Shown: positions 6,405 through 63,869, counted from the stretch's first letter. The stretch: 64,000 nt of DNA from a virus (IMGVR_UViG_3300033149_004566:48863-112862), one strand, 5' to 3'. Notes: a model not told the origin generated them from the sequence alone. Program-made: numbers and translations.

Positions 6405-8663
6405 ATGATACCCGTGTCCGTATTGATGGAACCGCCCAAGGTGGTAAAAGATCCTTTAAAATCATCGTCATTGATAAAGTCATTCGTGATGATGAATAAA
6501 ATGAAATTTAAGGGTCTGGTTCCAAAAATAATGGACGCTATCAGGCAATCCAGGCGCGTTGTTCAGATGGAAACCGGTGCACGATATCTCAAGAGATACA
6601 TCGATAACATGTTATATAATAGCATTGTCGATCCGCATTTATTGGATAGGATGAAGTCATTCGTGGAAAACACGTATATTCAACACTCTAGAATGTTGCA
6701 AGAAGAATTGTATAAATTGAAGATGGTTCCCACGACAATGGCCGTCATGACTCCTACTGATGAGGACAGGGTAGAGGATAGAAAGGATACTATAGAAAAA
6801 ATGGCAAGCCTGGAAGCCGAACGCTTGAGTGCGAGGATTCATGACATAATAGATAGGGCTTATCATAATGCCGAACCGTTATACAAAATAAAAAAAGAAC
6901 TACAAAAATCCATAAAAGTTAGCAAGAAAGAATCCGCTAGAATTGCCAGAACCGAGCTCATAAAAACCATGAACTTGGCCAGGTTGGAACGTATGACTTC
7001 ATCGGGGATCGAATATTATCAGTGGGTTTCGGCTCCTTCGTTTGATGAGAGATTGTGTCCTTTATGTGGCGAATTAAATGGAAAAGTAATAAAGTTGGGC
7101 AGGTCGTTTTCGGATTTAGTGCGAAACGAATCATCCAAGAAAATAATGGGAACTAGACAGATCTATTATCCTCCGGCACATCCGAATTGCAGGTGCACTA
7201 TAAGGCCATCTTATGCTCCGGTAATTACCAGGCCGTTAAAAGAACCGAAATTTATAAAGAAAATATTCGATAAGTTTCCTGGCTTGAGGCCCAAAACCTT
7301 GATAACACAAAAGATCGGCCCGACTTCGATAGATATCATACAGGCGGAAGAATTAGAGGACTGGCACGAATTGCACGATTTATATTTAAATGAATCGAAA
7401 AGATGGGGTGGCGATCTTCGTAAGCGATTGATATATCAGGCGATGGAAGCAAAAAATAGGGCAATGAAGGAAGACATAGAATTATTCGAGCGCGATAACT
7501 TGGAGGAAATGGAAAAGCCGAAATGGACGCATTATCCTTTAACAAAAGATGAAATTTATTATCATTATGCGCGAAATTGGGATAAATTGTATCCGGAATT
7601 GAAGGGCCGAAGAGTGGCGATCCGTAACCGCAGGGGCGTCATTTTACGTAATTGGGAGCCCGGTGGAAAGCCCATAGAAATAAAAAATAAAAATGATTTA
7701 AAAAAAGTAGTCTATAATAAAAATGCGGTTGAATTGATTCCGGAGTTGAGCACCAAAAGGATGAAACCATCAAATACAAGAAGGTTTCTCGTGGATTTAG
7801 ATTCAAATAGACCGATAGACGAGACGGTTGTCAAAAAAACAGTTGAAAAAATGAAAACGCTGCCGGTCAATAATGTTCAGGTTATATTTTCCGGGAAGCG
7901 TGGATATCACGTTAGAGGTGATACAAAAAAGAGTTACACGTGGAAAAAAGCGAGAAAAATGCTTCGTGAGGCGATGAAGCCTCTATCAGAACAATACAAT
8001 GATATAATTTTTGATTTATCACCCATGAAAAGACGTGGAGTTAGTGTATCTCCTTATAGTTTGAGATATTTGCCGACAGAAAGACAGGGCGTTGCACATC
8101 ACGTGCAATTTGAAGAGTGGTATGAAAAGGGTGCGTTAGGCACGCGGGACATAATTCCGGAAAAATTAAAATTGCCTAGCGGAAGAAATGCTTTCTTCAG
8201 GAAAACGTTTCTTGGCATCCAAAAACGAAAGTTGTATACCGAACAGGAATATAAATTGCAGGCGGCTTTACCGATCATATCGGCATTGAAACACGATCTC
8301 GATTTATCCGATTCGGTACAAAAAGAAGCGAAAAGGATATTTAAAAAGGCTTATAGTAGCGGGATAACACAGGGTAGAAAAACATCGTCCAATGCCGCGG
8401 TATCTGTTTACAATGCCATGAGATCGTTGGGAATGAGCAGGCCGATAAAAGATTTTCTTCCGCATGCAAATGTAAAGACCGGATCTTTTGTCAGGGCGGT
8501 TAAAAAATTTCAGGACGCTTTAAACTTGCCAAAATTTAAAGTCGGAAAGCGCGCCGACGTGGAAGAGGCAAGAAAGTATTATAAAAGCATGAAACGTACC
8601 GGTATAAGCAAGCGTAAAGTTGCAAGAATGTTTGGCGTGTCTCCGTCGAGTATAGGTGATTAG
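6405..8663 (+). CDS. MuF/SPP1 gp7 head morphogenesis protein fused to a LigD-type AEP polymerase domain and a TFB-like cyclin/HTH region
   Basis: MuF: RIARTE, WVSA..DERLCPLC, PPAHPNCRC; AEP: LTKDEIYYHY, LVDLD, FSGKRGYHV, IFDL, VSPYSLR; TFB: LDLSDSVQKEAKRIFKKA..GITQGRKTSSNAAVSVYNAMR..RPIKD, C-terminal SKRKVARMFGVSPSSI. Confidence 0.88.
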   Translation: MIPVSVLMEPPKVVKDPLKSSSLIKSFVMMNKMKFKGLVPKIMDAIRQSRRVVQMETGARYLKRYIDNMLYNSIVDPHLLDRMKSFVENTYIQHSRMLQEELYKLKMVPTTMAVMTPTDEDRVEDRKDTIEKMASLEAERLSARIHDIIDRAYHNAEPLYKIKKELQKSIKVSKKESARIARTELIKTMNLARLERMTSSGIEYYQWVSAPSFDERLCPLCGELNGKVIKLGRSFSDLVRNESSKKIMGTRQIYYPPAHPNCRCTIRPSYAPVITRPLKEPKFIKKIFDKFPGLRPKTLITQKIGPTSIDIIQAEELEDWHELHDLYLNESKRWGGDLRKRLIYQAMEAKNRAMKEDIELFERDNLEEMEKPKWTHYPLTKDEIYYHYARNWDKLYPELKGRRVAIRNRRGVILRNWEPGGKPIEIKNKNDLKKVVYNKNAVELIPELSTKRMKPSNTRRFLVDLDSNRPIDETVVKKTVEKMKTLPVNNVQVIFSGKRGYHVRGDTKKSYTWKKARKMLREAMKPLSEQYNDIIFDLSPMKRRGVSVSPYSLRYLPTERQGVAHHVQFEEWYEKGALGTRDIIPEKLKLPSGRNAFFRKTFLGIQKRKLYTEQEYKLQAALPIISALKHDLDLSDSVQKEAKRIFKKAYSSGITQGRKTSSNAAVSVYNAMRSLGMSRPIKDFLPHANVKTGSFVRAVKKFQDALNLPKFKVGKRADVEEARKYYKSMKRTGISKRKVARMFGVSPSSIGD

Positions 8664-42857: not shown

Positions 42858-43312
42858 TACAGCACCTCAACGTATTCATTGCAATAGAAGCAAAAATACT
42901 TCTTTTCTCTTCTATCATACGCGGATTTTTTTCCGCACACGACACACGACCTTTTATGAAGATCTTCCACGCTATCACATGGTATCGGCTCCAATTTTTC
43001 AAACAAACTGTCGTCGCGTTTTGATATTCCTTGTACTATGTTTACCAACATGTGCCATATTTTTGCTACCTGTATTGGGTCGTATTCATATTTTAATGCG
43101 TCGAGCACGTATGCTTGTGTTTTATTTTTTATAATCACGTGTCCGAGATATTCTGATTTGGCAATATTCTCCGGCGTGTTCCATGGATGAGACCAGAACA
43201 GTATGGCGGATAATCTGACGTCATAATTTCCGCCTTTTTCAACGTCTCTTTTTTCGCAATACCTGAAAATCTTGTCTATGGTGTTGTAATAATACATGCC
43301 TAGGAAATTCAA
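42857..43312 (-). CDS. Hypothetical protein with C-terminal zinc ribbon
   Basis: CVVCGK..YFCFYCNEY. Confidence 0.7.
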   Translation of the reverse strand: MNFLGMYYYNTIDKIFRYCEKRDVEKGGNYDVRLSAILFWSHPWNTPENIAKSEYLGHVIIKNKTQAYVLDALKYEYDPIQVAKIWHMLVNIVQGISKRDDSLFEKLEPIPCDSVEDLHKRSCVVCGKKSAYDRREKKYFCFYCNEYVEVL

Positions 43313-43983
43313 GACGTGAGCACCATGAAATTTTCTACATCATAATCATATCTGAAATGATTTTTGTCCGCGTTATCACGGATTTCATTAAATATCAGGG
43401 CGCAGGCGGTTGCTGCGACTTGATTCAACGTGAAAATTATGGTTTGCTGTGTACACGGAATGTCAAGTGTTTTTCTATCTAATGTCTCTGCCCAATTATC
43501 GATTTTTTCTGGTGTCACGTAGAACACCGCGCAGAATAGTCCTCCTGTTCTTGCGTCGATTATAGTTCTCTTGTTTTTTAAAAGGACGTCTTTCACTATT
43601 TTTCTAGAGGTCATCGAGTCGACTCCGAGAACGACAAAGTCGCACTCTTTGAACTCATTCACGTGGTTTTTTCCGAACAATTCGTTGTACTTGATGACTT
43701 CAACTCTTCCAGGAGATACTTGCTTGATTCGGTTTTCAAGAGCGTCTACCTTTGGAAGATCTACTTCGTCCCTGAAGAAGAATTGATTCGGAAGGTTGTG
43801 CTCTTCGATCACGTCATCATCAAACAGCACGAATTTTCCGACGCCCATTTTTGCCAGCATCGTGCATATGATGGAGCCGACAGAGCCACATCCTATCATC
43901 ATGACGCTTACATCCTGTATTGTTTCGGGATTAATCCATCCCGATTGCCTCAAAAAGGTATTTATAATGTTCATCTTTATCAA
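43309..43983 (-). CDS. ThiF/E1-like Ubl-activating enzyme (system 1)
   Basis: FLRQ, IGCGSVGS, FDDDVIEEHNLPNQFF, PKVDAL, GVDSM..R, IDARTGG, candidate catalytic Cys in IPCT. Confidence 0.93.
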   Translation of the reverse strand: MIKMNIINTFLRQSGWINPETIQDVSVMMIGCGSVGSIICTMLAKMGVGKFVLFDDDVIEEHNLPNQFFFRDEVDLPKVDALENRIKQVSPGRVEVIKYNELFGKNHVNEFKECDFVVLGVDSMTSRKIVKDVLLKNKRTIIDARTGGLFCAVFYVTPEKIDNWAETLDRKTLDIPCTQQTIIFTLNQVAATACALIFNEIRDNADKNHFRYDYDVENFMVLTS

Positions 43984-45194
43984 CTATAATAATTGATTCT
44001 TTTTCTCGATTTTTTGATTATATAACTTCGTTTATTCACGTTGTAATAATTATGATAATCGCTTTTCGCTACGACGACGTCTTTTTTGTCAATCCATTCA
44101 TATATGCCGTCTATTTTGACTAGATATTTGTCATTGCCTTCGATTATTATCTCGCCAGGTTTCATCGCATAGTTGTCATTTTTTACAGCACATTTTTTAA
44201 GAGATCGTGAGCTGTAAGATTTTTTTATCATTGTTTTTACCTTTTCTACGAACTCTATGACTTTCGGATCGTTCATCATGGAATCTGGATCTCCGTAGAA
44301 TTTTATCTCCTTGCATTTTTTGTGAACGTCTCCAGGATAATCTATTTGCACGTGCGACTTCATGGTTGTAAAATTCATGTTTTCAGTGAACGACGTTACT
44401 ACACTGAGTACGGCCGGCCATCCCATTTTTAGGAATAGATCGATCGTTGATTTATCTGTTCCGGATATGAACGTTGACATTGATCCGTGGCTATGCCACG
44501 TGCCTATTATTGACTCCTTTTCAAATGGTTTTGTTGGAGCTTTTATCATTTCGATGTTAGAGATTCCGTAATCCTCCAACGCATCTTTTTCATAGTCAAC
44601 CGAACCGGACGTTACGCTCTGTTTGATTATCACCAACTCAGTGATGAGTATTTTCATCAGTTTGCCATCGTCGTATGTTTTTTTACCTATTATTAGGCCT
44701 CCAATTTCGCTGTTGCCAAATGACAACGTGAGAAGGGCTATTTCAGCTGCAACCTGTTCGCTAAAATATACTTCAAAGTCCTGTTTTATTTCTTTCTTTT
44801 TCGTATATTTCGCGAGCGTTTTTATCTTCTTCTTTTTTAGATCTCTCTCCTGCCATAAAGTATAGATTTTGTAGTTCCCAACCCATTTTATACATAAGTC
44901 GCGAGCGTCGCACAACTTTTTATTGTCAGTATTTTTACACGTCAGACATTTTTCGTCGTAGCTGTAATCATCTAAATGACGATCGATTTCGTTCTCATAT
45001 AGATCTACATCGTAAAGCACGTAATATGGGTCATAATGCTTGTAGTCCTCGTTCTTACAAACTTTACATAGATCGTCATTGCCATTGAGATACCACGCGC
45101 ATTTTTCGCATATTCTTTCATCCATTTCTACACCCCATGCATAGTCCATCTTTATCCAAGGCAAACATTTTTCCGCATGATACACATTCGTCAT
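43980..45194 (-). CDS. JAB/MPN metalloprotease with Cys-rich N-terminus (system 1)
   Basis: EIGGLIIG..IIGTWHSHGSMSTFISGTD (JAMM E..HxH..S..D). Confidence 0.9.
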   Translation of the reverse strand: MTNVYHAEKCLPWIKMDYAWGVEMDERICEKCAWYLNGNDDLCKVCKNEDYKHYDPYYVLYDVDLYENEIDRHLDDYSYDEKCLTCKNTDNKKLCDARDLCIKWVGNYKIYTLWQERDLKKKKIKTLAKYTKKKEIKQDFEVYFSEQVAAEIALLTLSFGNSEIGGLIIGKKTYDDGKLMKILITELVIIKQSVTSGSVDYEKDALEDYGISNIEMIKAPTKPFEKESIIGTWHSHGSMSTFISGTDKSTIDLFLKMGWPAVLSVVTSFTENMNFTTMKSHVQIDYPGDVHKKCKEIKFYGDPDSMMNDPKVIEFVEKVKTMIKKSYSSRSLKKCAVKNDNYAMKPGEIIIEGNDKYLVKIDGIYEWIDKKDVVVAKSDYHNYYNVNKRSYIIKKSRKRINYYS

Positions 45195-46341
45195 AGCCGA
45201 CGACTATTTTACAGAAATCCGTTATATATGAATCTTCTGGATTGTATGTCACGCACATTTCTCTAATGAGTAGTACCAGGTTAACTATGTCCAACTGTGC
45301 AGACGCATTTTTTATGGCAACGCTAAAGCTGCCCATGCATATCTTATCTGTACCGATATGTGGCGTGATATACGCATCATACGGGGCAAATGTTGGGCCC
45401 TCGTGTTTTACCAACACGGGATCCATTCCGATAGAGCAAGACCATGTGAACGTTCCGATCGGGATGTATTCCTCGCAATGATCGTTCTCGAAGTATAATT
45501 CTAGATCGTGATACACGACGTTTATTCCGTTGTCCACGACCTCTACGTCGATGTTATCAAGTTTTTTTAATATTTCCAACGTTTTTGGCAAGTTTAATAG
45601 ATTTTTATGACAGTTTTTGATGTTTTGTGATATTTCTCTTTTCTTAACGGCTGATTTGACGTTTGCAAGTAGGTTAAAATTGTACTTGAGAGCAATGTTA
45701 AATAACGGCAAGAATTCCGCAATTTTTTTGTCTGTTAATTTTATCTCGTCTCCATTGACCACCGTTTCAACAAAGTTTTCTAAGACCGTATTTACGTTCG
45801 TTATGGCGTAAAAGTTTTCATCCAGTTTGGACGCTATGATTTCGCCCTTCTCATTTACTATGATGGACTTGGCAATGAACGCGTCGCCGACTCTATCCAT
45901 TAATATGAGGTGCGGGATTTCACCCTTGACGTCCGAGTTTAGATAATCGTCTATTGTCGACACCAACTTACCACCTTCAAAGTTAAATCTGTTAACGACC
46001 TCGTCTGGAAACCACATGTTGTCTTCCGATAAGTTAACGAATCCCGGAATCCTGTCGACGACTATTTGAATTTTATTTAATGAATCAATTGCGTCTTCAT
46101 CCCAATATATGGCTTTTGAAGCCAATACTCTGGTTATATATGCCATGTCTCCAATTCTTAATCTTTTATCGTGTTCAAGAGTCTTATGTTCGCATTCGTT
46201 GTCGATGCCGATTGCACATCTATACGTTTCACAGTCTTCGTGGATCACGTCGCAAGCGGCACAGCACTTGTAACTTTTAATTATCTGGTTCGGACATCCG
46301 CCCGCTTTTATATGCTTTTTGCAATACATCGATGTTATCAT
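45118..46341 (-). CDS. Prokaryotic E2-like Ubl-conjugating enzyme with N-terminal Cys-rich/SH3-like module (system 1)
   Basis: C-terminal TPHIGTDKICMG..YNPEDSY (HPH-type motif plus catalytic Cys); between JAB and Ubls. Confidence 0.78.
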   Translation of the reverse strand: MITSMYCKKHIKAGGCPNQIIKSYKCCAACDVIHEDCETYRCAIGIDNECEHKTLEHDKRLRIGDMAYITRVLASKAIYWDEDAIDSLNKIQIVVDRIPGFVNLSEDNMWFPDEVVNRFNFEGGKLVSTIDDYLNSDVKGEIPHLILMDRVGDAFIAKSIIVNEKGEIIASKLDENFYAITNVNTVLENFVETVVNGDEIKLTDKKIAEFLPLFNIALKYNFNLLANVKSAVKKREISQNIKNCHKNLLNLPKTLEILKKLDNIDVEVVDNGINVVYHDLELYFENDHCEEYIPIGTFTWSCSIGMDPVLVKHEGPTFAPYDAYITPHIGTDKICMGSFSVAIKNASAQLDIVNLVLLIREMCVTYNPEDSYITDFCKIVVGYDECVSCGKMFALDKDGLCMGCRNG

Positions 46342-46356
46342 ACAAAATCACCACGT

Positions 46357-46638
46357 TTATCGAGGTAAAACTGTCATAAAAATGGGAAATAGGGGATTTT
46401 TATCATTTGTAATTCTTGTAGATTTGAAAGAAATTATTCCTTCCGGAATATCTTTTACGAGCGTGCTCTTGTTAATTATTTTTCCAGATATTACCATGGG
46501 TTGAGTACCATCTTTTACACTGATCTTTTCATCATCTATTAATTGTTCAACGACCTGACTACAGGTCATATCCTCGTCAAATTCGACAGTATAGATGCCA
46601 ATGCCCCAAATGGCGAAGTTAAGTTTTCTTTTTGTCAT
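46357..46638 (-). CDS. Ubiquitin-like beta-grasp protein, copy lacking the conjugation Gly
   Basis: Paralogue of 46643-46930; ISFKSTRITNDKNPLFPIF. Confidence 0.7.
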   Translation of the reverse strand: MTKRKLNFAIWGIGIYTVEFDEDMTCSQVVEQLIDDEKISVKDGTQPMVISGKIINKSTLVKDIPEGIISFKSTRITNDKNPLFPIFMTVLPR

Positions 46639-46930
46639 GTTTTCAACTCTTTTGAGGAAAATTATTATAAAAAATAGGGAAAAGGGCTTTTTTGCCCTGT
46701 TTGATTTCCGGTGGCGTGAAGCTAATCATTCCTTCTGGAATGTCTTTCACGAGAGTGCTCACGTCAATCACTCTGCCAGATACTTTCATTACCTGGGCCC
46801 CGTCTTCTACACGAAGCTTTCCATCGATAATTAATTGTTCAACGACCTGACTGCAGGTCATATCCTCGTCAAATTCGGCAGTGTAAAGGCCAACGCCCCA
46901 AATGCCGAAGTTAAGTTTTCTTTTGGCCAT
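46539..46930. repeat. DNA-level duplication between the two Ubl genes (about 46539-46638 and 46831-46930)
   Basis: ttaattgttcaacgacctgact[a/g]caggtcatatcctcgtcaaattcg...gccccaaatg[g/c]cgaagttaagttttctttt shared. Confidence 0.9.
46643..46930 (-). CDS. Ubiquitin-like beta-grasp protein with Gly and C-terminal extension (system 1)
   Basis: EFDEDMTCSQVV..VSGRVID.STLVKD..ISFTPPEIKQG|KKALFPIF; adjacent to E2/JAB/E1. Confidence 0.75.
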   Translation of the reverse strand: MAKRKLNFGIWGVGLYTAEFDEDMTCSQVVEQLIIDGKLRVEDGAQVMKVSGRVIDVSTLVKDIPEGMISFTPPEIKQGKKALFPIFYNNFPQKS

Positions 46931-46935
46931 TTTTT

Positions 46936-47400
46936 TCAACTCATCGGTTTTATCGTTGCACTGAAAGACGATTTTACAGGCACGTCTTCGAGGTGCAATA
47001 AAAATTCTTCATTTTCATTTATTTCGTTATTTCCTTTCGGATAATCTATCATGATGACACTTTCAATGTCATTCGCTTTTTTATAGATTATCCTGTACGA
47101 ATTGTTTAAAATGCATCCTTTTTGGTATGCTAATACGAAGGCTTCATATTTGAGCCTTCCATTACATGATCTACATTGGGTTTTTTCAAGTTCGTTTACC
47201 GAATAATTTAAAAACCCCTGTTTCAACGCCAATAGCATGTTTTGCGTTGAGTTTTCTGTAACGGTTACCGACCTTGTCCTACATCTCGTGCATTTAAAAA
47301 TCATGGACATTATAGATGCATGGAAGTCGGTCTTTAATAGGTTCTCCATATAGGAGCTTATTGGGTCAATGTACTCTGACATTATTTGTTCATCTCGCAA
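46936..47400 (-). CDS. Zinc-ribbon protein
   Basis: FKCTRC...QCRSCNG. Confidence 0.7.
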   Translation of the reverse strand: MRDEQIMSEYIDPISSYMENLLKTDFHASIMSMIFKCTRCRTRSVTVTENSTQNMLLALKQGFLNYSVNELEKTQCRSCNGRLKYEAFVLAYQKGCILNNSYRIIYKKANDIESVIMIDYPKGNNEINENEEFLLHLEDVPVKSSFSATIKPMS

Positions 47401-48056
47401 TACTCATCGCTAATGATGATCGGAGTGATAGTTTCCGGTAAGTGCACGTGACTGCACGCGTGCAGTCTATTGTCTTTTACCACAATGGTATTACAACGTT
47501 GTTTTACGTTGAACACTCTATCCATGATGTATTTTTCACACCTGATCATATTTGCCCAGATTTTTCCGATCTCGAGAATTTTTTGCTTCATGATTGGAAC
47601 GTCTTCGTCTTTTATTTGATTTGCAACGGATAGTCTCATTCCGTGCAGTGTTGGAAAACACCACAAGAAGAATTCAAATGCCAACACTTTCATGCGATCA
47701 AAGTCAACCGGAAAATCATCGATGACAAATTCAACGACGCATACGCTTTCATTGATAAAGAATTTTTCCATTGCTTCTATCAACGTTTTTATCGTTTTTT
47801 CATCGTAAAACTCTTTTGATATTCGGAAGATCATGTTCGACACGTTGAATTTCGGCAGCTCGTCGTAGTAAACGTATCTATCGGCACGTATTTTCAACAT
47901 CATGTTGAATATTTTTTTGTCTTCGTAGATGCTGTCATCGATTATTAAATTGACCACATTATTGCTTGCAATGTTTTTTATATCAGCGACTATGTCTTCC
48001 GAAGGCACGTTCTTTACGTAGATTTTATATTTAATAATAATCACCCATTTCATCAA
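47382..48056 (-). CDS. Hypothetical protein
   Basis: Coupled ORF; C-terminal C..ACSH. Confidence 0.65.
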   Translation of the reverse strand: MMKWVIIIKYKIYVKNVPSEDIVADIKNIASNNVVNLIIDDSIYEDKKIFNMMLKIRADRYVYYDELPKFNVSNMIFRISKEFYDEKTIKTLIEAMEKFFINESVCVVEFVIDDFPVDFDRMKVLAFEFFLWCFPTLHGMRLSVANQIKDEDVPIMKQKILEIGKIWANMIRCEKYIMDRVFNVKQRCNTIVVKDNRLHACSHVHLPETITPIIISDEYCEMNK

Positions 48057-49641
48057 TGCTGTTTCCTTCTATAATATTGTTTATTATAGAAGATATTGCG
48101 GTCGGAATGTTGCTGCTATCAACATATAACATTTTCTTACCCCACATTTTTTTTAATGTTGCTTGTGAAGACGTGCAACATATCGGTATGAAATGCACTC
48201 CTTCGCGTTTCACGTCGTAGTACATGTACAACGTGTCTGCTATTGCTTCGTTGCCACTGTAGGCACATCCTCCGTGATGCGGTAACCCATCCGATATGAA
48301 CATGATTATCTTTAATTTTTCCGGTCTGTCCAGAATTTTCTCGAGCTCATATCTTATACTGTATCCGTCGGCGTTTTCATAGTCCGCAATCACGGACTTG
48401 TACATCCTGCTCGTTATCGTATTTTCATTATCATCATCAAAATCTCTAAAGACGTGATGATAACATGTGTATCCACTGGAAGATGCCTCGAAGCTTATGG
48501 CGCGTATGTTCGCGCCCAATTCTATTAATATGTTCTCGATGTTTGACGCTATGTCCCGTAATGTGTCTTCGGTAAATCCCTGTACCGAGCCGGAGCCGTC
48601 CATCATTATTGTTGCCGCCATCGATATCCTTTGTTTTTGCGGTAAATAAAATCTTTTCGGTTCATGTATTGACGTCGGTATGCTGAAGTCGTATATTTCG
48701 CCTTCGTAGTCCAATTTTGCCGTCCTTTTTTCCATCAGTGTTTGTTCCAGCAATTTTAATTCTTCGTCTTTTATTTTATGCATCTTTATTTTATTATTTT
48801 TCAGTGAATGAATCTTGATTTCCTTATATTCATACGGTAGATTAATGGGTTGTGGTGTAAATTTTGTCCTTTTTACCATGGTTTTGAATCTTTCTGTTGT
48901 CTTTTTTATCGTTTCTTTGTATTTTTCGATGAATTCGTTCATGTCTTTTTCCAGTTCTTCCAACGACTTATCAGAATTTAGAATATCTTTCATCATTTTA
49001 CAATGTTCTGTATTCTTGCGCTCTTCAGTTTCCAGCTCTGTTGTGGTAGATATAATTCTACTTCTATTTGGCAGCTCGGCTCTGATTCTGGATCTATCCT
49101 TCATCCACATCTTGAGGATTTCTATTGTTGCCCATAATCCTCTGACAGGATTGGGATCTTCTAACAACGTGTCGAATATTTCTCTTATCCGCGGCATGTC
49201 TATGTCGTCAAAATTTCTATGTCTTGCTCTTTCTAGGTCGATTACGAATAATGAGAGGCTTTTCAACGGCTCTACATTATCGCGATATATTTTCAGATAT
49301 TTTCTTGTTCCGGGCAATAACTCTTGAATTATTGTTTGAACTCTGACGTCTTCCACGACGTTAAAAATGTACCTATATGTTTCGTCTATATTCGCCACTA
49401 TTGTGGGATCTGAGAAAATAACAAACGCAGAGGCATAATGACTAAAGCCTCTCACGTATTCTTCGCTTTCAACGTTTTTTTCGTAAGTCAAAATTACTTT
49501 TTTATCCGTGTCCATTGTCACTATTGGAATTATAGATCTATCGATAGTTTCAAATGTTGTTATTTCAACATTTCCCTTTTCGATGCCGGACAACGTGCTG
49601 AGTATCGTTTTGATCATGTTTTCTCTTTCTTGGTTATTCAT
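48031..49641 (-). CDS. vWA/MIDAS-domain protein (CobT/NorD-like partner of MoxR ATPase)
   Basis: MMDGSGSV (DxSxS), ENADGYSI, FISDGLP; N-terminal FNVVEDVRV. Confidence 0.88.
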   Translation of the reverse strand: MNNQERENMIKTILSTLSGIEKGNVEITTFETIDRSIIPIVTMDTDKKVILTYEKNVESEEYVRGFSHYASAFVIFSDPTIVANIDETYRYIFNVVEDVRVQTIIQELLPGTRKYLKIYRDNVEPLKSLSLFVIDLERARHRNFDDIDMPRIREIFDTLLEDPNPVRGLWATIEILKMWMKDRSRIRAELPNRSRIISTTTELETEERKNTEHCKMMKDILNSDKSLEELEKDMNEFIEKYKETIKKTTERFKTMVKRTKFTPQPINLPYEYKEIKIHSLKNNKIKMHKIKDEELKLLEQTLMEKRTAKLDYEGEIYDFSIPTSIHEPKRFYLPQKQRISMAATIMMDGSGSVQGFTEDTLRDIASNIENILIELGANIRAISFEASSSGYTCYHHVFRDFDDDNENTITSRMYKSVIADYENADGYSIRYELEKILDRPEKLKIIMFISDGLPHHGGCAYSGNEAIADTLYMYYDVKREGVHFIPICCTSSQATLKKMWGKKMLYVDSSNIPTAISSIINNIIEGNSIDEMGDYY

Positions 49642-50453
49642 AGTTCCACGTCGTGTGCAATTAATAGCTCTTTTATTGCGTCTCTCTGTTTCTTTTCCAC
49701 CTGATCGACAATAGTTTTATTTATGCTCAGCCCGTGTTCATATGCGAAGAGCATTTTGAACAACAGTCTCATGGTGACATACTTGGATGATTTTCTCATG
49801 TTGTAAAATGCATTGATGATTTTGTTGTTCGGAGTAAGATCTTTAGTCTTGCATATTTCATGTACCACGTTTTTTGGTGGAAAGTCCATGATGTAATTAA
49901 AAAATCTCGAGACCGTTGCTTCGTTTTGTTTAAAGGTTCCTCTAAGCCCCGGATTTTCCGTAGACGCCATCAAAACCTTGCATTCGATTGGAATTTGAAT
50001 TCCCAGGGCACCAACATGATATGATTTTCTAAAATCGGTTAGCTGATTTATTGCAGCTATCACGTTCGGCTCTCCGAGATTTCTTTCATCCAATACGATA
50101 ATTACATCTCCCGGTCTTTCATGATCCATGTTTTTTGCCATCCAATTGCCCATTAGTAGAGCATTGGTTATGAATCCCGGCCTAAAGCTTCCATCCGCCA
50201 GAGGCGATCCTTCAAAATGAAAGTTTCTCGTCTCATTATTGATCGGAATCACCATGATCGGAATTTTCCAATCTTTTGCCAATGACATTAATAGCGTGGT
50301 TTTTCCGATTCCTGGCTCTCCGATCAAGTTTATCGGCATGTTTTCTATTATTTCACTAACTTCTTCTCTATACATGTTGTAATTTATAAATCCCGGAATG
50401 TCCGGGATATAAGAGTTTACAAACTCTTTATTCATTTCTGGTAATTTATTCAA
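49638..50453 (-). CDS. MoxR-family AAA+ ATPase (CbbQ/NorQ/CobS-like)
   Basis: LIGEPGIGKTT, VLDERN, STENPG.RGT..NEATVSRF. Confidence 0.9.
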   Translation of the reverse strand: MNKLPEMNKEFVNSYIPDIPGFINYNMYREEVSEIIENMPINLIGEPGIGKTTLLMSLAKDWKIPIMVIPINNETRNFHFEGSPLADGSFRPGFITNALLMGNWMAKNMDHERPGDVIIVLDERNLGEPNVIAAINQLTDFRKSYHVGALGIQIPIECKVLMASTENPGLRGTFKQNEATVSRFFNYIMDFPPKNVVHEICKTKDLTPNNKIINAFYNMRKSSKYVTMRLLFKMLFAYEHGLSINKTIVDQVEKKQRDAIKELLIAHDVEL

Positions 50454-51540
50454 TCTGTCTTACCACCAAACTTCTCATTGAATAATATATTGTTGTATAT
50501 TTTTTATATTTTATCATGCCGGCAATTATATTTGCGCCAAAATCTGCCGTTGTCGGCAGTATTACCGGTGTTGTTATGTTGGTACTCACGGGTCGTACCA
50601 ACCTTCCGTCAATCATTTTACAATTTATCCTTTCTTTAAGGGTTTTTGTAGCACCATGCTTGACGGGAATGATGACGCCGTCAAATCCATCCGGTGAGAT
50701 GGTTATGTCAAAGAGGGGCTTTTTATAATATTCGGCAATTTCATCGATATAAAACTTTAGTTCTATATCGTTAACCGTATTTATAATAAAATCTACATCT
50801 TTCATAAGACTTTCATTGAAATCTATCTCATATACATTTTTATCTATAAATCTTCTTCTATACTGTCTCGCTGCGCTGCTTTTCCTTGACATTAGATCGT
50901 CGTATGCAAATCCAGCTGCTATATTTTTATCATTGATATATCCGTCATCTATGATTATTACATGGTCATGATAATTTTGAACGTAAAATCCCACTGAGCC
51001 CAAGCCAATTAACAATATATTGTACGGATTGAAAAAAATCTTTTGTTTTTTATATGGCAACATACATTTTACATGCCTAAGCGTTTTTCCAATACAATGA
51101 TTTAATACTTCTTGCGATACTACCGTTTTCATGGCACACGCATATGAAGCGAATAAATAATATGGGATTATAACTGGAGGACGCGTGGGATTGTACGCGA
51201 AAACGTTAAATCCAGACAAGCTATCAACATCAAATAATGACACTACTTTTCTACACGCTCCACGTGAGTCAAGTACATATACTGTATTTATTATATCGGC
51301 AATTTTATTGCAATTCATGACACATGTCTTGTGGTCATTTTTTTTAATAATTCTATGTTTTATAAGACTTTCCACAGTTGAATAACAAGCGTTATATACC
51401 AATGATGGAAATCCAAGAGTGTGCATATTTTCAAAATCACCATAAGTTCGGTATCCCTTATATCTAATAATTACTTGCTTATTTGCAAGCTTGGATACAT
51501 CATACGCGTTATTTAATATCCTATGATAATCAATATTCAT
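50446..51540 (-). CDS. ThiF/E1-like protein with two ThiF-like halves, probably catalytically impaired (system 2)
   Basis: IGLGSVG present, but NLNR replaced by NIAAG and VDN by VND; N-terminal YHRIL..YDVSKLANKQVII. Confidence 0.75.
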   Translation of the reverse strand: MNIDYHRILNNAYDVSKLANKQVIIRYKGYRTYGDFENMHTLGFPSLVYNACYSTVESLIKHRIIKKNDHKTCVMNCNKIADIINTVYVLDSRGACRKVVSLFDVDSLSGFNVFAYNPTRPPVIIPYYLFASYACAMKTVVSQEVLNHCIGKTLRHVKCMLPYKKQKIFFNPYNILLIGLGSVGFYVQNYHDHVIIIDDGYINDKNIAAGFAYDDLMSRKSSAARQYRRRFIDKNVYEIDFNESLMKDVDFIINTVNDIELKFYIDEIAEYYKKPLFDITISPDGFDGVIIPVKHGATKTLKERINCKMIDGRLVRPVSTNITTPVILPTTADFGANIIAGMIKYKKYTTIYYSMRSLVVRQIE

Positions 51541-52684
51541 CCATATCCACCGAAAATGCTGAAAAATCTCTGAGAGAGAACTTTATACATGATTTTCTTT
51601 CGTTACCACAAGAAAGTAGTTGCGATAACATCAGCTCCGCTACTAACGAATGCGTGGTGCACAGGCTACTGGAACAACTGTAATCGCTCACATTCTTATT
51701 TTCAAAAAAGTCACCTATGTAAGTCATTTTTAACATCTCTTTTAATGTCGGCGTAGTCCCCGGAACGACATGTCTTATAGAACCACCAAATCCGTCAAAC
51801 GAACTTCCCCCGTCTATCAGCGGGATATTATATTGTTGCGAAATTTCATCCATGTATATTCTTGCCTCCTTGTTGTCAACCGCTAAAACGATATATGAAA
51901 TGCTTTTCATGAAATCGCTGTTAAAATTATAGTCAAAAATGTTCATGACCATTGGTATTATTCCGATGTCATTCTTCTCGGTCACGGCTATCGATTTATA
52001 CTTGCCGATGTCTTCAATGTTGAACGATCTGTTTAGATTGACCTCATTGACTATATCGTCGTCAAATACGTACATTCTATCGCGGGAATTATATGTCCTG
52101 CACGTCTTGACGAAATTGGATCCTATTCCACCGGCCCCAATCAACATTATATTTCCCGGATATTTCAATTTTACGGGTTTGCCGTGAAATAGTACTTTTT
52201 TGGTTGGTATGCCTATGACGTAATTTAATATTGTTTGCGTTAACAATATCTCTTCAATATTACCAATTTTGCAGGGCGGAAAACTTATCGTGCTGGTATC
52301 ATCGCCGATTTCTTCATCGGTGTTTATTTCCACCCCATAATACGTGTTTCCATTAGCCACGATAGTATTGAATCTCACAACTGCGGCACTTTTTTCATTT
52401 TTCAATATTTCTACAAAACATCCTCTTTCCGTCTTTTGATCGGGATTGACGTTTATTTTCCACCTGTAATCCGACGTCCGAATTATTCTTTTAGCAAGTC
52501 TCCGCACGCACCCTGGCTTGTACGAATAACCTGGATCGGTAAAAAATTCGCGAAATCCCAGCCTTATTAACAATTCGTACATGTCTATGTTCGCGTCGAA
52601 TCCGAAGCGCAACGTTACGTTGAACAACTTGGACAGGTCATATGTTCCTATGAGTCTCGAAAAACACAGCGGTATGTCATTCAT
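51530..52684 (-). CDS. ThiF/E1-like Ubl-activating enzyme with degenerate N-terminal ThiF half (system 2)
   Basis: IGAGGIGS, FDDDIVNEVNLNRSF, DIGKYKS, AVDNKEAR, IPLIDGG, YSCSSSLC. Confidence 0.9.
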   Translation of the reverse strand: MNDIPLCFSRLIGTYDLSKLFNVTLRFGFDANIDMYELLIRLGFREFFTDPGYSYKPGCVRRLAKRIIRTSDYRWKINVNPDQKTERGCFVEILKNEKSAAVVRFNTIVANGNTYYGVEINTDEEIGDDTSTISFPPCKIGNIEEILLTQTILNYVIGIPTKKVLFHGKPVKLKYPGNIMLIGAGGIGSNFVKTCRTYNSRDRMYVFDDDIVNEVNLNRSFNIEDIGKYKSIAVTEKNDIGIIPMVMNIFDYNFNSDFMKSISYIVLAVDNKEARIYMDEISQQYNIPLIDGGSSFDGFGGSIRHVVPGTTPTLKEMLKMTYIGDFFENKNVSDYSCSSSLCTTHSLVAELMLSQLLSCGNERKSCIKFSLRDFSAFSVDMDEY

Positions 52685-53456
52685 ACGCTTTTATCACGTC
52701 CTTTATTATTTCATCGTACATTTTTGACATCATCATTATGTCTTCTTCTTTCATGAATCGGTTTATCTTCTTGATTATTTTTATTTTTTCGTCATATTTT
52801 TCAGTCACCGGCGGCGTCCCGAAATATATGTAAGGTATTCCGCGCACGACCGTCTCTTTACTCTTTCCGATCTTCTTGTTTTTCACGGAATTCATCGTGA
52901 AATATGATGAAGACAACATGGATATTTTTTCGCTGAAATATGTTTGCATTTGCGGACGATTTGCGCCGCCGTTAATCATAAAAAATGGAAACGGATAATT
53001 CTTCCTGTCAAATTTCGGAAGGCTCCTGTCGTCTGTCGTTATAGTTTCCACGGAGTACGCCTCGTCGTTTATTATTTCATAGATATTCAACTCGTTGTTG
53101 TTATATATCATGAATATGGGCGTCGTCGCAGTTAAAGATTCCCATCTTATGAAATTTTTCATATCGGATTTTGACGGCACTGTTTCGCTCGCATGTGAAT
53201 GAGCGTGTCCAACAACATGCAATCCTATCGGTAATCCCAATTCTATATCGTGTCTCCGTTTTGATGACGATATGACGTGATCTACGTCATTTTCAATGTA
53301 TTTCATCTGTACGACGTCATATATTCTTATCGTGTTATTAAAATCCGTTCCTATGAGATAGAATGCGATCTCTTTTCTCGCCAATTTCGATAGAAATCGC
53401 ATTTTTTTCACGATGTAATCCGGAATGATCACTTTTTCGATTGCCAAAAAGAACAT
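52677..53456 (-). CDS. JAB/MPN metalloprotease (system 2)
   Basis: KEIAFYLIG..VVGHAHSHASETVPSKSD. Confidence 0.9.
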   Translation of the reverse strand: MFFLAIEKVIIPDYIVKKMRFLSKLARKEIAFYLIGTDFNNTIRIYDVVQMKYIENDVDHVISSSKRRHDIELGLPIGLHVVGHAHSHASETVPSKSDMKNFIRWESLTATTPIFMIYNNNELNIYEIINDEAYSVETITTDDRSLPKFDRKNYPFPFFMINGGANRPQMQTYFSEKISMLSSSYFTMNSVKNKKIGKSKETVVRGIPYIYFGTPPVTEKYDEKIKIIKKINRFMKEEDIMMMSKMYDEIIKDVIKAYE

Positions 53457-53902
53457 CTCCCTTCTGCAGATAATCCGTCTTTCTTACAGATATGATATAT
53501 TTTTCCAGTGACATCGCTGACACTCGTGACGTGCCTGCAGTTCTTACAGGAAGAGTCCGTGAACACCACTTTGAATTTTTTTATGGCTTCATCGAGAGCG
53601 TCCATCAGGATTTCATCGACGCTCCCGAGAAGATCGGGAGTCAAGATTTTAAAGGAAGAGTTTTCATTTTGAGTTATTTCTCCCACCGTTTTCTTGTCCC
53701 ACTCGTCATCTATGATGTTGTTTTCATTGTCTACTAATTGTACTGTATCTGGTATGGGATAATTTCCCCTAAAAGATGTCAATGCATCGACAATGGCATC
53801 TATCATTGGCGAATTATTGTCCGCCACGATCGTTACACCTTTCCTCGCTCCGACGAGCGAGAATTTTATTTTGACTTTATCTCCTAATTTTAACACCTCC
53901 AA
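53429..53902 (-). CDS. UFM1-like ubiquitin-like protein fused to a C-terminal Cys4 domain
   Basis: KVKIKFSL..KTVGEI..NSSFKILTPDLLG|S parallels UFM1 KVSFKITL..QTAGNV..GSELRIIPRDRVG|S; then CKNC..C..C. Confidence 0.72.
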   Translation of the reverse strand: MEVLKLGDKVKIKFSLVGARKGVTIVADNNSPMIDAIVDALTSFRGNYPIPDTVQLVDNENNIIDDEWDKKTVGEITQNENSSFKILTPDLLGSVDEILMDALDEAIKKFKVVFTDSSCKNCRHVTSVSDVTGKIYHICKKDGLSAEGRCSFWQSKK

Positions 53903-54329
53903 TAATAAGGCCGTAAACCATGATCATGGACACGACCCACGCAATGCCGTGCTCTTTCGGCTTGAACTTGGGAAGTTTTACATTTCCCTTAAAACATAAT
54001 CTTTCGCTGCTCCTATACATGTTGAAAGATAAGTTTTTTTTACCGTATTCCACGGCACTCCACACGTACTCCAACATGTTCACGCGCGGGTAGTCCGGCG
54101 TCAACATTATTGGAACGAGCATGTTGTTTCCATTACGATAAAAGTGCACCTTTACCCAATATACCGGAAATTTGGGATAATTATCCCAATAAACCTTCTT
54201 TAAGAATAACTTTTTATCGAAGGTTCTCGGTATTTTTTGTAGGTTTTCTTCCTCTTCACGCTTGCGTAGCTCCCATTCATCATCAAATGGACTGCACATT
54301 ATCTTATGTTTCTTGAGATACTGGAACAC
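53877..54329 (-). CDS. UFC1-like E2 conjugating enzyme
   Basis: SPFDDEWELRKREE..L, LTPDYP, NMYRSSERLCF, PKEHGIAW parallel UFC1 GPRD..W..RLKEE..L, IPITYP, KMYRGGKICL, PKFGLAH. Confidence 0.75.
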   Translation of the reverse strand: MFQYLKKHKIMCSPFDDEWELRKREEEENLQKIPRTFDKKLFLKKVYWDNYPKFPVYWVKVHFYRNGNNMLVPIMLTPDYPRVNMLEYVWSAVEYGKKNLSFNMYRSSERLCFKGNVKLPKFKPKEHGIAWVVSMIMVYGLIIGGVKIRR

Positions 54330-57069: not shown

Positions 57070-57579
57070 CTAAAAAACAATTGCGCTTGGCTTGCTTTTA
57101 TTATAACAATTAATACACATGCGTTGTATCATAACAATTCCAAATGGATTTATCGTGACTATGAATATTTTTGCCCTCATGTTGCAACAAATACCATCTC
57201 GCGTTTCGCTGCACTGAAAAATCGTGGAATTTGATTTATAATATACACGCGCACTGTATCCTTTGCTGACACTCACGTCTTTTATTTTTTTAAACTCAGA
57301 ATTCATTTCGTCAAATGCTTCATTTTGTAAAAATTCCCTAGCAAGTTCATCGGTAAATATTATAATTGCTACCAAGCAATTATAACACGTCCTTTTTATT
57401 TCTTCGCTTTTTAAGTTTACAATTACATACTCGACATGGTGTTGTTTGCAGATGTCACAGGTCTCAAAATTTTCTACAATCCTCGAAAAATGCTTGTAAA
57501 TGGCCATTGTTTTGTCGGAATACAATAGGTTATATTCCTTCGGTTTCATCATATATACACGACCTAAAGTGCCTGTCAT
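57070..57579 (-). CDS. Double zinc-finger family B protein
   Basis: TCDIC..TCYNC..CCNMRAKI..MCINC. Confidence 0.78.
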   Translation of the reverse strand: MTGTLGRVYMMKPKEYNLLYSDKTMAIYKHFSRIVENFETCDICKQHHVEYVIVNLKSEEIKRTCYNCLVAIIIFTDELAREFLQNEAFDEMNSEFKKIKDVSVSKGYSARVYYKSNSTIFQCSETRDGICCNMRAKIFIVTINPFGIVMIQRMCINCYNKSKPSAIVF

Positions 57580-58003
57580 AACAAATAGGACATAAATAAT
57601 TTCTAGACATCGTGTTGTTATCTATGTTCTCATAGATCACTATTATTTTTGCCCTCATGTTGCACGTTTTATTTTCTTGTATGTGATTACATTGACGCGA
57701 TATCATGTCTGGATCATAAAATACTGTAACTTGAACATCACTACCATATCTAAAAGAATTTATCATTTTCTTGTTAGATATAGTAAACTCTTTAAGAAAA
57801 GCTCCTGAGACGCGAATTCCCATGGTGTATATTCTTGCATAGAAACATATTTCACACATCCGTAATTCTTTTCCACTTTTGTACTTGATTTTTATTCTTG
57901 TATAATTACTGCAAAAATTACACGCTTCATGTCTTTTATCATGGCGAAGAGTGTAAAATATCCTACTTATTTCCACTCTATCGTCCTTGTACAACGTGTT
58001 CAT
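57530..58003 (-). CDS. Double zinc-finger family B protein
   Basis: ACNFC..MCEIC..TCNMRAKI..LCPIC. Confidence 0.78.
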   Translation of the reverse strand: MNTLYKDDRVEISRIFYTLRHDKRHEACNFCSNYTRIKIKYKSGKELRMCEICFYARIYTMGIRVSGAFLKEFTISNKKMINSFRYGSDVQVTVFYDPDMISRQCNHIQENKTCNMRAKIIVIYENIDNNTMSRNYLCPICYDRHFRSCIYDETEGI

Positions 58004-58412
58004 CAGTTATCTCCTCGTAATGTATCATACAGAGATATATCAACGTGAATTTTATTTCGGCATTGTGCGGCTCCACGTCTATCAGTACCACCTTTGCCTT
58101 CATGTTGCAATACATGCCATTCTCACTGGCATTACAATTATATAATTCCAAGTTTGGCATGTAGTTTGCCATATAATAACCACAAGGAGGTATTATTGGT
58201 TTGGCTTGCAATTGTTTTTTTATAAATGACAAGAGCTCGTCTTCGTCTTGATATTCCTCTATGAACGCGTCCACGCTCATCATTGACGTTTTGTCCCCCA
58301 TTTTTATATATATCACGTCAGTTGGACATTTTTTATTAAATGTTTTATATACGACGACATCATCGTCTTCGTATAGTATGTTGATCACGTTAGATCTAAT
58401 ACCACATTCCAC
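57978..58412 (-). CDS. Family B protein (first finger degenerate)
   Basis: YNCN..YCNMKAKV..LCMIH. Confidence 0.75.
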   Translation of the reverse strand: MECGIRSNVINILYEDDDVVVYKTFNKKCPTDVIYIKMGDKTSMMSVDAFIEEYQDEDELLSFIKKQLQAKPIIPPCGYYMANYMPNLELYNCNASENGMYCNMKAKVVLIDVEPHNAEIKFTLIYLCMIHYEEITDEHVVQGR

Positions 58413-62284: not shown

Positions 62285-62793
62285 GAAATTTCATCTCTTT
62301 CTATTTTTATTATTTCCGAGTTCAGCTCGTGAACAAAATATTTGTCGTCATTCATTTTTAAAAAATCAAAATCTCCAGACAGTTCCCATGCCATGTCCTC
62401 ATTTTCTGCCCATATTTCTCCAATTTTCATGTATTCTTCTATGAATTTTATGAATACCTTGTATCTCCGATGGCCTACAATCTTTTTATACATTACATGA
62501 AAGAATTTTTTTAACATTGATAAAAACTCAATTTCTTTACGATGTATATCATAAAATATACATCTTGTGGTCTTTTCAAATATTTTAAAAATTTTTTCAA
62601 TAATGGATAAAATTCTATTTTGTTCTTTCCATATCGCCATGTGGCTATCGTTTATATTTAATTTGTCTAAAAGATTTACAGTATTTTCATTTAGACATTT
62701 TATGGGACATTTTCTTGTAAGGAATTTTTTACCTTCCTCTTCTCCATGGAGTTTTATAAAAAACTCCCTGTAATTAAATTTTATTTTTTTCAT
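62281..62793 (-). CDS. Hypothetical protein
   Basis: ATG at 62793 (MKKIKFNY..) overlapping the ligase stop; track start 62943 lies inside the ligase gene. Confidence 0.6.
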   Translation of the reverse strand: MKKIKFNYREFFIKLHGEEEGKKFLTRKCPIKCLNENTVNLLDKLNINDSHMAIWKEQNRILSIIEKIFKIFEKTTRCIFYDIHRKEIEFLSMLKKFFHVMYKKIVGHRRYKVFIKFIEEYMKIGEIWAENEDMAWELSGDFDFLKMNDDKYFVHELNSEIIKIERDEIS

Positions 62794-63869
62794 AATTTTC
62801 CATCCCCTATCATTTTTAGAATTTCGACAAAAAGTTTTCTTTCGTCGCACAAGTAATACAATTTGAGCAGTCTCTTGTACGTCTTGTCTATTGCAAGCGC
62901 ATCTAATCTCACGAAGTATTCCTTGCGGCTCTTCCTGTCGCAAAGATAGTCCAAGTACATTTTTTCCAATTTTCTTTCAACATTGTAGTATACCGATCTA
63001 ACATAGTCCGATATTTCATAAGCTGTCTCGTGAAAGACGTCCGGAACGCCTTTGATAATTGCGTTATCTTTTAACATGTTGTCCACGACTATTTTTTTAA
63101 GGCCGTGTTCCGTGCCGCATGACTTCTTGACCTTGAACATTTTAAAGTATTCGGGTCTCTTTACCTTCATCATATTCACACGGCCGTTAACTTTTGAATA
63201 TACGACCCATCCTTCTCGATCGCATCCAATCTCGTGCTTTTTTATGATGATATCGCTCATCGTCAAATCATCGTATATCTCACACGTTTTCAAGTCGAGA
63301 TTTTCCGCAACTTTTTTCATCTCATTCGGCATGAGAAGGCTCCAATCCTCTTTTGATCTCAGGCCAATTAATCTCAGTTCGGTTTTTTCATATTTCGTCA
63401 CTAGAAAATTGAGAAAGTCCGGCGATATGAGCTCAAACATGAACGTGTATTTTTCCGTGGGAAGATCGTCGAAGGTTGCAACTTGCTCCGCCATCTCTGT
63501 AAATCTATTGGAGAAAGATCCTCTCGTCGAAAATTTCAATTTTCCTTCGTGCTTGTATGGTATAATGAGAACTCCATCCAATTTTTCCGTGACTTGCGTG
63601 TCCTGTGTTAGAAACAATGGATCAATGCTTCTCGGCTCTTCAAAGTCATTGTAAAATTTATCAAACGGATATTCAATTATTTTTTTGTCGGAATTTCTCA
63701 AGATTATGCCCCTACACATTTTTATGTACCTATTGCTGCTCATGACGTTGCTAATCGATTTTCTACAATTTATCTTGAAAAGCGTTCTATTATAATTGAA
63801 CACGTATTTTACGACGTTGTCAAACTCAAAAACGAGATCGACAAGCCTTTTTCCGAGATCTATTACCAT
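62790..63869 (-). CDS. RNA ligase, T4 Rnl1 family
   Basis: FNY..CRGIIL..YPFDKFYN, EKLDG (motif I), STRGSF, TFMFELISP, EGWVV, KVK. Confidence 0.92.
   Translation of the reverse strand: MVIDLGKRLVDLVFEFDNVVKYVFNYNRTLFKINCRKSISNVMSSNRYIKMCRGIILRNSDKKIIEYPFDKFYNDFEEPRSIDPLFLTQDTQVTEKLDGVLIIPYKHEGKLKFSTRGSFSNRFTEMAEQVATFDDLPTEKYTFMFELISPDFLNFLVTKYEKTELRLIGLRSKEDWSLLMPNEMKKVAENLDLKTCEIYDDLTMSDIIIKKHEIGCDREGWVVYSKVNGRVNMMKVKRPEYFKMFKVKKSCGTEHGLKKIVVDNMLKDNAIIKGVPDVFHETAYEISDYVRSVYYNVERKLEKMYLDYLCDRKSRKEYFVRLDALAIDKTYKRLLKLYYLCDERKLFVEILKMIGDGKL

Follow-up and report, generated by a model that had tools for sequence, protein, structure and literature searches.

The stretch of viral DNA analysed here, 64,000 nucleotides in length and referred to as the window, corresponds to bases 48863-112862 of an IMG/VR virus record which is 112,862 bp long and bears direct terminal repeats. 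It carries five consecutive genes on the minus strand which appear to encode a module for the conjugation of a ubiquitin-like protein (Ubl), similar in kind to the Ubl/E1/JAB modules of prokaryotes, in what is probably a tailed virus of Asgard archaea; taken as a whole, this reading is given a probability of roughly 60%. From upstream to downstream, the open reading frames (ORFs) code for a candidate E2 (conjugating enzyme), a candidate Ubl precursor, a JAB/JAMM metallopeptidase, an E1 (activating enzyme) predicted to be active and a degenerate paralogue of this E1, termed E1′ here (Table 1). A sequence-only reading had interpreted the same genes as a complete UFM1-like operon with a UFC1-like E2, a UFM1-like Ubl, a JAB protease and two E1s. 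The five ORFs and their overlaps of 8-28 nt (26, 28, 8 and 11 nt in gene order, with longest-ORF starts) hold up, as do the two E1s, both of which pass Pfam ThiF. At the level of sequence comparison, the family assignments and motif states of E1, E1′ and JAB can be regarded as established.

The E1 possesses a ThiF adenylation domain with the motifs GAGGIGS183, NLNRSF216 and VDNKEAR269, followed by Cys337 in the crossover loop, where a further cysteine (Cys342) is also found. Its NLNRSF and VDNKEAR motifs align to NLNRQF and LDNVDAR of the active adenylation domain of yeast Uba1. For comparison with UBA5, a fragment of 80 residues of the human protein was used, which is 100% identical to the UBA5 chains in PDB. 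BLASTP aligns residues 279-357 of E1 to this fragment without gaps, so that the crossover loop is of UBA5 length and Cys337 falls on the catalytic Cys250 of UBA5. As the catalytic motifs and a cysteine at the UBA5 position are kept, E1 looks catalytically competent. Its strongest matches in PDB are to Uba1, UBA3 and SAE2 (E-values 7e-9 to 2e-7), with UBA5 (E-value 6e-5) being the sole non-canonical E1 among its 30 PDB matches. In PADLOC, only weak Cap2-type 'E1-E2' matches to the Rossmann region were obtained for E1 (best E-value 1.4e-5).

The neighbouring E1′ is a paralogue of E1 (33% identity over 177 aa, E-value 3e-21) in which the catalytic residues are lost. In alignments to E1 and to the active adenylation domain of yeast Uba1, it has NIAAGF where NLNRxF is expected, with the motif arginine gone, and VNDIELK in place of (L/V)DNxxAR, with aspartate replaced by asparagine and arginine by lysine. 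The aspartate at that position binds Mg in Uba1. An ungapped register check places Thr324 of E1′ at the position of Cys337 in E1. Since the ATP-site arginine, the Mg-ligand aspartate and the cysteine are all lost, E1′ is read as an inactive partner, and it looks to be a catalytically dead companion of E1.

A protein lacking the catalytic residues, encoded beside a paralogue which has them, is the residue pattern of heterodimeric E1s, and E1 and E1′ may pair with each other. Among the bacterial E1-like proteins known, all those other than BilD are homodimers, and BilD has inactive and active adenylation domains in one chain (10.1101/2023.09.26.559546). As separate genes, E1 and E1′ would be a split form of the BilD arrangement, like NAE1-UBA3 or SAE1-SAE2. 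The putative viral pair resembles these eukaryotic heterodimers in having a competent ThiF-fold subunit together with a paralogue without the ATP and Mg residues, and the best PDB matches of E1 are to UBA3 and SAE2 as well as to the active domain of Uba1. It differs from them in lacking both the inserted Cys domain and the ubiquitin-fold domain, and in carrying unrelated N-terminal extensions of approximately 170 aa. These extensions belong to no Pfam family and have no paralogue elsewhere in the genome (tblastn). In alignment, residues 1-170 of E1 and E1′ are only faintly alike, with MN..R(I/L)...YD(L/V)SKL, LGF and RII(R/K) in common.

The gene between E1 and the Ubl candidate encodes the JAB/JAMM metallopeptidase, the domain occupying the N-terminal part of the protein and the C-terminal half having no assignment. 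The sequence-only reading's JAB protease is confirmed here less firmly than the E1s, by a Prok-JAB match below the Pfam cut-off (E-value 4e-6 on a per-genome basis) and by an intact motif: its HSH-x6-S-x2-D block (GHAHSHASETVPSKSD) aligns to the HSH..PS..D motif of the crystallised AfJAMM, and Glu29 lies upstream of this block. The only other JAB-like gene of the genome also adjoins an E1. The alignment of the motif to AfJAMM and the position of this second gene both back the assignment.

An E1 with an intact adenylation site next to a JAB protein with the E..HxH..S..D motif is also what characterises the Bil systems, where JAB pre-processes the Ubl and the E1 has an inactive and an active adenylation domain (IAD and AAD; 10.1101/2023.09.26.559546). 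The component set of the bacterial BilABCD antiviral operons (Ubl, E2, JAB, E1) matches that of the virus, where the E2 is a candidate only. The two differ in that BilD combines the IAD and AAD in one chain with an inserted CYS domain, whereas the virus has two paralogous chains with the cysteine in a short crossover loop, and in that the former belong to a host defence island and the latter to a virus. The PADLOC Bil models gave no match, and PADLOC returned nothing for the Ubl, the E2 candidate, JAB or E1′. A comparable archaeal operon is that of Caldiarchaeum subterraneum (Ub/E1/E2/RING/Rpn11), in which the Ubl precursor is reportedly JAMM-processed (PMC6043591, PMC5654768). There, the E2 is recognisably of UBC fold, the E3 is a RING protein and the Ubl belongs to the ubiquitin family; no counterpart of these is detectable in the virus.

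The candidate Ubl precursor has two parts, of which the first ends at Gly93. In a single-sequence AlphaFold2 model of low confidence (pLDDT only 45.8), the predicted order of its elements is strand-strand-helix-strand-strand-helix-strand followed by a tail to Gly93, which would fit the order of the beta-grasp fold, and in the same model Gly93 sits 4-5 residues beyond the last strand, a tail length like that of ubiquitin. A further 64 residues follow Gly93, including the cysteines C119, C122, C139 and C150. This tail matches neither of the Pfam families for the ribosomal proteins S27a and L40e, nor any other family. Cleavage of the precursor may take place at Gly93.

Co-folding of E1 with residues 1-93 of the Ubl candidate gave a median ipSAE of 0.47 (runs 0.39, 0.48 and 0.47), compared with 0.02 for the best control; at least 83% of contacts are shared between runs, with a pLDDT of 72-76 for the partner. 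In calibration, 58 of 80 solved complexes and two of 110 mismatched pairs reach the mark. As the passes at or below 0.60 in this calibration are few (seven of the 80 solved complexes) and include both passing mismatches, the result is counted as a weak pass. The signal may reflect a likeness to solved E1-Ubl complexes. Docking of the Ubl on E1 was already likely from the gene order, for which reason the co-fold is taken as modest support, and the model is weakly in favour of such docking.

The 150-aa product of the first gene may be an E2, judging from its position and size. It is encoded directly before the Ubl gene, is of a size like that of E2s, and has a predicted helix followed by three strands and then a PDYP motif at residues 78-81 (AlphaFold2 model, pLDDT 38). 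Cysteines occur at positions 12 and 112 only, with Cys112, at about 53995 in the window, being the single internal one. Residues 128-146 are strongly hydrophobic (mean Kyte-Doolittle value 2.08 over 19 residues) and are followed by KIRR; this C-terminal segment (GIAWVVSMIMVYGLIIGGV, residues 128-150) corresponds to 53877-53960 on the minus strand of the window. It could be a tail anchor or a buried helix after the E2 active site. If an E2, the protein would be membrane-bound in a similar way to those of the Ubc6/UBE2J type.

The features of this protein bear on an alternative in which the system is without an E2, as in the SAMP/UbaA/JAMM type, with E1 (with E1′) transferring the Ubl directly, JAB both processing and removing it, and the 150-aa ORF coding for an unrelated membrane protein. 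The UQ_con, Prok-E2_B and UFC1 profiles match nowhere in the virus, the ORF has a membrane-like C-terminus and no usable model, E1 is of the minimal type, and archaeal SAMP conjugation reportedly requires E1 alone and is reversed by a JAMM peptidase (PMC4443979, PMC4895103). However, the ORF immediately precedes the Ubl gene, with which it overlaps; its product is E2-sized, with a single internal cysteine and a PxxYP-type motif after predicted strands; and in a second Ubl-type cassette of the genome, a large gene with cysteines likewise stands between those for Ubl and JAB. An E2-less arrangement is considered unlikely.

The conjugation module that we favour would begin with JAB cutting the 157-aa precursor after Gly93, which would release a modifier of beta-grasp fold along with a small protein containing four cysteines. 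E1 would then adenylate Gly93 and load the modifier on its crossover-loop Cys337, as do minimal E1s of the UBA5 and MoeB types, acting as a heterodimer with the degenerate E1′ in a split version of the NAE1-UBA3, SAE1-SAE2 and BilD pairs. From there the modifier would be passed to lysines of host or viral target proteins, possibly via Cys112 of the perhaps tail-anchored 150-aa protein, and JAB could also remove the mark.

Genes of the same three kinds could instead supply a sulfur carrier or serve in biosynthesis, in the manner of ThiS/MoaD/CysO; a thiocarboxylate would then be made on the Ubl by way of E1 adenylation, JAB would act like Mec+ in releasing a product or maturing the carrier, and no protein would be conjugated. 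E1 is a minimal enzyme of the ThiF/MoeB type, and Ubl, E1 and JAB triads are reported in sulfur-carrier pathways (PMC1779556). Nevertheless, neither a rhodanese, ThiG, MoaE or CysM family nor any other of the sulfur pathways was found among the neighbouring genes scanned, and the best PDB matches of E1 are to eukaryotic conjugation E1s and not to MoeB or ThiF. The putative carrier also ends in a single glycine and not in GG, is made as a fusion, and belongs to one of two cassettes in the same genome. Such a function is regarded as very improbable.

Several observations weigh against a conjugation module as such. The Ubl candidate has no family match in Pfam, PHROG, PADLOC or the PDB sequences, neither homologues nor a confident model were obtained for it, and structure searches with its poor AlphaFold2 model returned nothing beta-grasp-like. 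The E2 candidate is likewise without a match in Pfam, PHROG, PADLOC or PDB. A word-indexed search among 5.8 billion proteins recovered only itself, and an exhaustive phmmer search of 1.84 billion representatives added to this no more than three artefacts caused by tandem repeats (two were inspected). It has no usable model (AlphaFold2 single-sequence pLDDT 38, ESM Atlas 0.41), and searches of the ESM Atlas gave only noise-level rows for both it and the Ubl. The matches of the JAB gene lie below the Pfam cut-offs, Prok-JAB scoring 21.7 bits against a cut-off of 25 bits, and GxGxxG is retained in E1′, where nucleotide binding may persist. No E3 and no target could be identified.

The module is also known only from this virus and a near-identical twin, and so is without comparative support. 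Word-indexed searches with E1 found itself and one partial ThiF protein of 40% identity. Scans of IMG/VR with E1, the large terminase and the AAA+ protein encoded downstream of E1′ revealed no relatives, nor did blastn and tblastn searches of INPHARED, and a GTDB genome scan with an alignment of E1 and P0003 gave only generic bacterial ThiF genes (25-30% identity). Within the whole virus, tblastn detected no paralogues of the E2 candidate, of either half of the Ubl, of the JAB halves or of the E1 N-terminal domains.

The kinship with the UFM1 pathway (UBA5, UFC1, UFM1, UFSP1/2) proposed by the sequence-only reading can be judged for each component. For the E2, the strings cited as UFC1 hallmarks are present (PFDDEWELRKREEEENL, NMYRSSERLC and EHGIAW), but they are no better than chance. 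Pfam UFC1 (PF08694) has no match in the whole virus at E≤10. A set of 25 real UFC1 sequences was retrieved via an 80-residue fragment 100% identical to database UFC1s and aligned. The hidden Markov model built from this set gives the E2 candidate 1.0 bit in an unfiltered search (hmmsearch --max), a score equalled or beaten by 156 of 2000 shuffled sequences. Comparison by hhalign gives a probability of 1.0% over 21 columns of the N-terminal helix only, BLASTP an E-value of 8.1 and semi-global alignment a z of 0.22. In the UFC1 alignment, K-M-Y-R-G-G-x-I-C-L-T-D-H-F-K-P-L-W around the catalytic cysteine is invariant or nearly so; of this block the E2 candidate shares M-Y-R and a cysteine shifted by one residue (NMYRSSERLCFKGNV), and the region is aligned by neither hhalign nor BLASTP.

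The Ubl does end its first part in PDLLG93 followed by serine, with a single glycine as had been claimed, but the profiles show no likeness to UFM1: Pfam Ufm1 (PF03671) has no match in the whole virus at E≤10 (one candidate scored). The propeptide of UFM1 consists of 2 aa and is removed by UFSP cysteine proteases. In the virus, 64 aa follow Gly93, the adjoining peptidase is of the JAB/JAMM type, and no UFSP-like family was found among the neighbouring genes scanned. By profile comparison, UFC1 and UFM1 are no nearer to these two ORFs than other families are, and the proposed relationship of the E2 candidate and the Ubl to those proteins is not supported.

UBA5 itself has a C-terminal tail which binds UFM1 and UFC1, as well as CxxC zinc ligands. 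E1 stops 27 residues past the aligned region, and the ACFAC of UBA5 aligns to TPTLK. E1 appears to be UBA5-like in part, namely in crossover-loop length and in the position of Cys337. This E1 feature, a minimal E1 with a cysteine in a loop of UBA5 length, is the only likeness to the UFM1 pathway that could be verified. The single-glycine end of the modifier, and an E2 candidate that is small and lacks C-terminal helices, are further points in common with that pathway.

A true UFMylation-like cascade, in which the 150-aa protein, the Ubl and E1 were homologous to UFC1, UFM1 and UBA5 as relatives in an archaeal virus, would account for the matching loop length and cysteine position, for the LPTT which E1′ retains in register of the UBA5-like loop, for UBA5 being the one non-canonical E1 matched in PDB, and for the single glycine and the short strings that do occur collinearly in the 150-aa ORF. 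It is also in line with the published tree of the viral E1-like proteins of Nidhogg, which places them near UBA5 (10.1101/2021.07.29.454249). It is at odds with the chance-level results for UFC1 and UFM1, with the missing zinc ligands and tail of E1 and its 170-aa N-terminal extension, and with the higher scores of Uba1, UBA3 and SAE2 against E1. The pairing of a JAB metalloprotease with a 64-aa propeptide where UFM1 has UFSP and a propeptide of 2 aa also speaks against it, as does the second, degenerate E1, which does not suit the UBA5 homodimer. Such a cascade is accordingly held to be quite improbable. As regards UFM1, the outcome is mainly negative, and the operon is at present unusable as evidence on the origin of UFMylation.

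As for the virus, genes of the window for a large terminase and for a head protein of MuF type identify it as tailed. Two genes of the virion module carry transcription-factor domains of archaeal/eukaryotic kind, the TFIIS zinc ribbon and the TFIIB repeat listed in Table 1, and these point to an archaeal host. The record is very probably that of the Helarchaeota virus Nidhogg or a near-identical one, and by this identity the host very probably belongs to the Asgard-type archaea. Its gene content agrees with that published for Nidhogg (10.1101/2021.07.29.454249) in the three genes of ThiF/E1-like type (the whole genome contains exactly three ThiF genes), in a LigD domain accompanied by a zinc finger of TFS-II-like type, and in an RNA ligase, glycosyltransferases and a match to the vaccinia I7L/C57 peptidase family.

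The three viral E1-like genes are thus already published, the preprint proposing that the viral E1s harness an E2 and a Ubl of the host; it makes no mention of a JAB gene (10.1101/2021.07.29.454249). The adjacent JAB, the Ubl precursor, the reading as cassettes and the split E1 pair are new here. That account differs from the present one, in which every E1 is assigned to a cassette that also contains JAB and a candidate Ubl, one of the E1s being interpreted as a dead partner to the adjacent E1.

No prokaryotes known are more closely related to eukaryotes than the Asgard archaea, through which the origin of ubiquitin-type signalling is traced. Should the virus run its own Ubl conjugation without hijacking that of the host, viruses would be carriers, and possibly innovators, of Ubl machinery within this lineage. 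A pair of active and inactive E1s on two genes would, if real, be the first case in which the arrangement that defines the canonical eukaryotic E1s is split. On the UBA5 branch, the split-E1 system could then represent a surviving transitional form that links the homodimeric E1s of prokaryotes to those eukaryotic E1s that are heterodimeric or pseudo-dimeric. It is rather doubtful that the virus possesses a fully self-contained Ubl system in which the split E1 is made up of an active UBA5-like chain and a dead paralogue, the Ubl is produced in fusion with a zinc protein, and the E2 is minimal, membrane-anchored and of unrecognised fold.

Table 1. Genes of the Ubl-type cassette and other features of the window discussed in the text (positions counted from the first base of the window).
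Feature	Position	Strand	Basis or remarks
150-aa ORFan, candidate E2	53877-54329	-	Position and size
157-aa candidate Ubl precursor	53429-53902	-	Beta-grasp-like N-domain (1-93) ending LTPDLLG93, then helix and four-Cys module
259-aa JAB/JAMM metallopeptidase (N-terminal ~125 aa)	52677-53456	-	Prok-JAB E 1.9e-4; JAB E 0.012
384-aa E1, predicted active	51530-52684	-	Pfam ThiF E 6.7e-20; adenylation domain after ~170-aa N-terminal extension
364-aa E1′, E1 paralogue, predicted catalytically dead	50446-51540	-	Pfam ThiF E 1.3e-8
271-aa AAA+ ATPase, CobS/MoxR (AAA_5) type	49638-50453	-	Pfam AAA_5 E 2.6e-8; phrog_249 E 8.7e-10; 8-nt overlap with E1′
536-aa protein with CobT-like vWA region near C-terminus, AAA+ partner	48031-49641	-	CobT_C E 1.6e-3 (below cut-off); phrog_1576 E 1e-5; 4-nt overlap with AAA+
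Second, unrelated Ubl-type cassette: two ~95-aa ORFs, 407-aa Cys-rich gene, 404-aa JAB, 224-aa E1	43309-46939	-	Prok-JAB E 3.2e-4; ThiF E 3.7e-32
LigD 3'-phosphoesterase domain fused to TFIIS zinc ribbon	3078-3884	+	Domain matches, E 8e-16 (LigD) and E 1.2e-17 (TFIIS)
MuF head protein with TFIIB cyclin repeat	6405-8663	+	Domain match, E 3e-12 (TFIIB)

The tight packing of genes seen in the cassette extends upstream of it too, and downstream into the genes for an AAA+ ATPase and a vWA protein. The former probably belongs to the same transcription unit as E1′. A CobS/MoxR-like AAA+ protein with a CobT-like vWA protein is a gene pair frequent in phages, and gene overlap hints that the pair may have a functional tie with the Ubl genes. 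In the second Ubl-type cassette, the NLxRQ motif of the E1 reads NLPNQF, and the two small ORFs, which are of beta-grasp size, have no conserved C-terminal glycine in common. BLASTP detected no paralogy between the genes of this cassette and the E2 candidate or Ubl of the first.

Some of the labels given in the Nidhogg preprint can be compared with genes of the window. Its 'Ro60 with TROVE and vWA' may be the vWA gene beside the AAA+ gene; a profile search found no TROVE family in the genome. Its 'I7L/C57 peptidase' label probably stems from a 157-aa ORF at 57530-58003 (minus strand), which has a match to Peptidase_C57 (vaccinia I7L) above the Pfam cut-off (E-value 7.5e-7). This match spans only positions 179-255 of the 425 in the profile, and the ORF is too short for a whole protease, being one of a group of tandem Cys-rich paralogues (with 57070-57579 and 57978-58412) having the common motif CNM[RK]AK; the label may thus be misleading. 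The window also encodes an RNA ligase of the T4 Rnl1 type (RNA_lig_T4_1, E-value 1.7e-17) at 62790-63869 on the minus strand.

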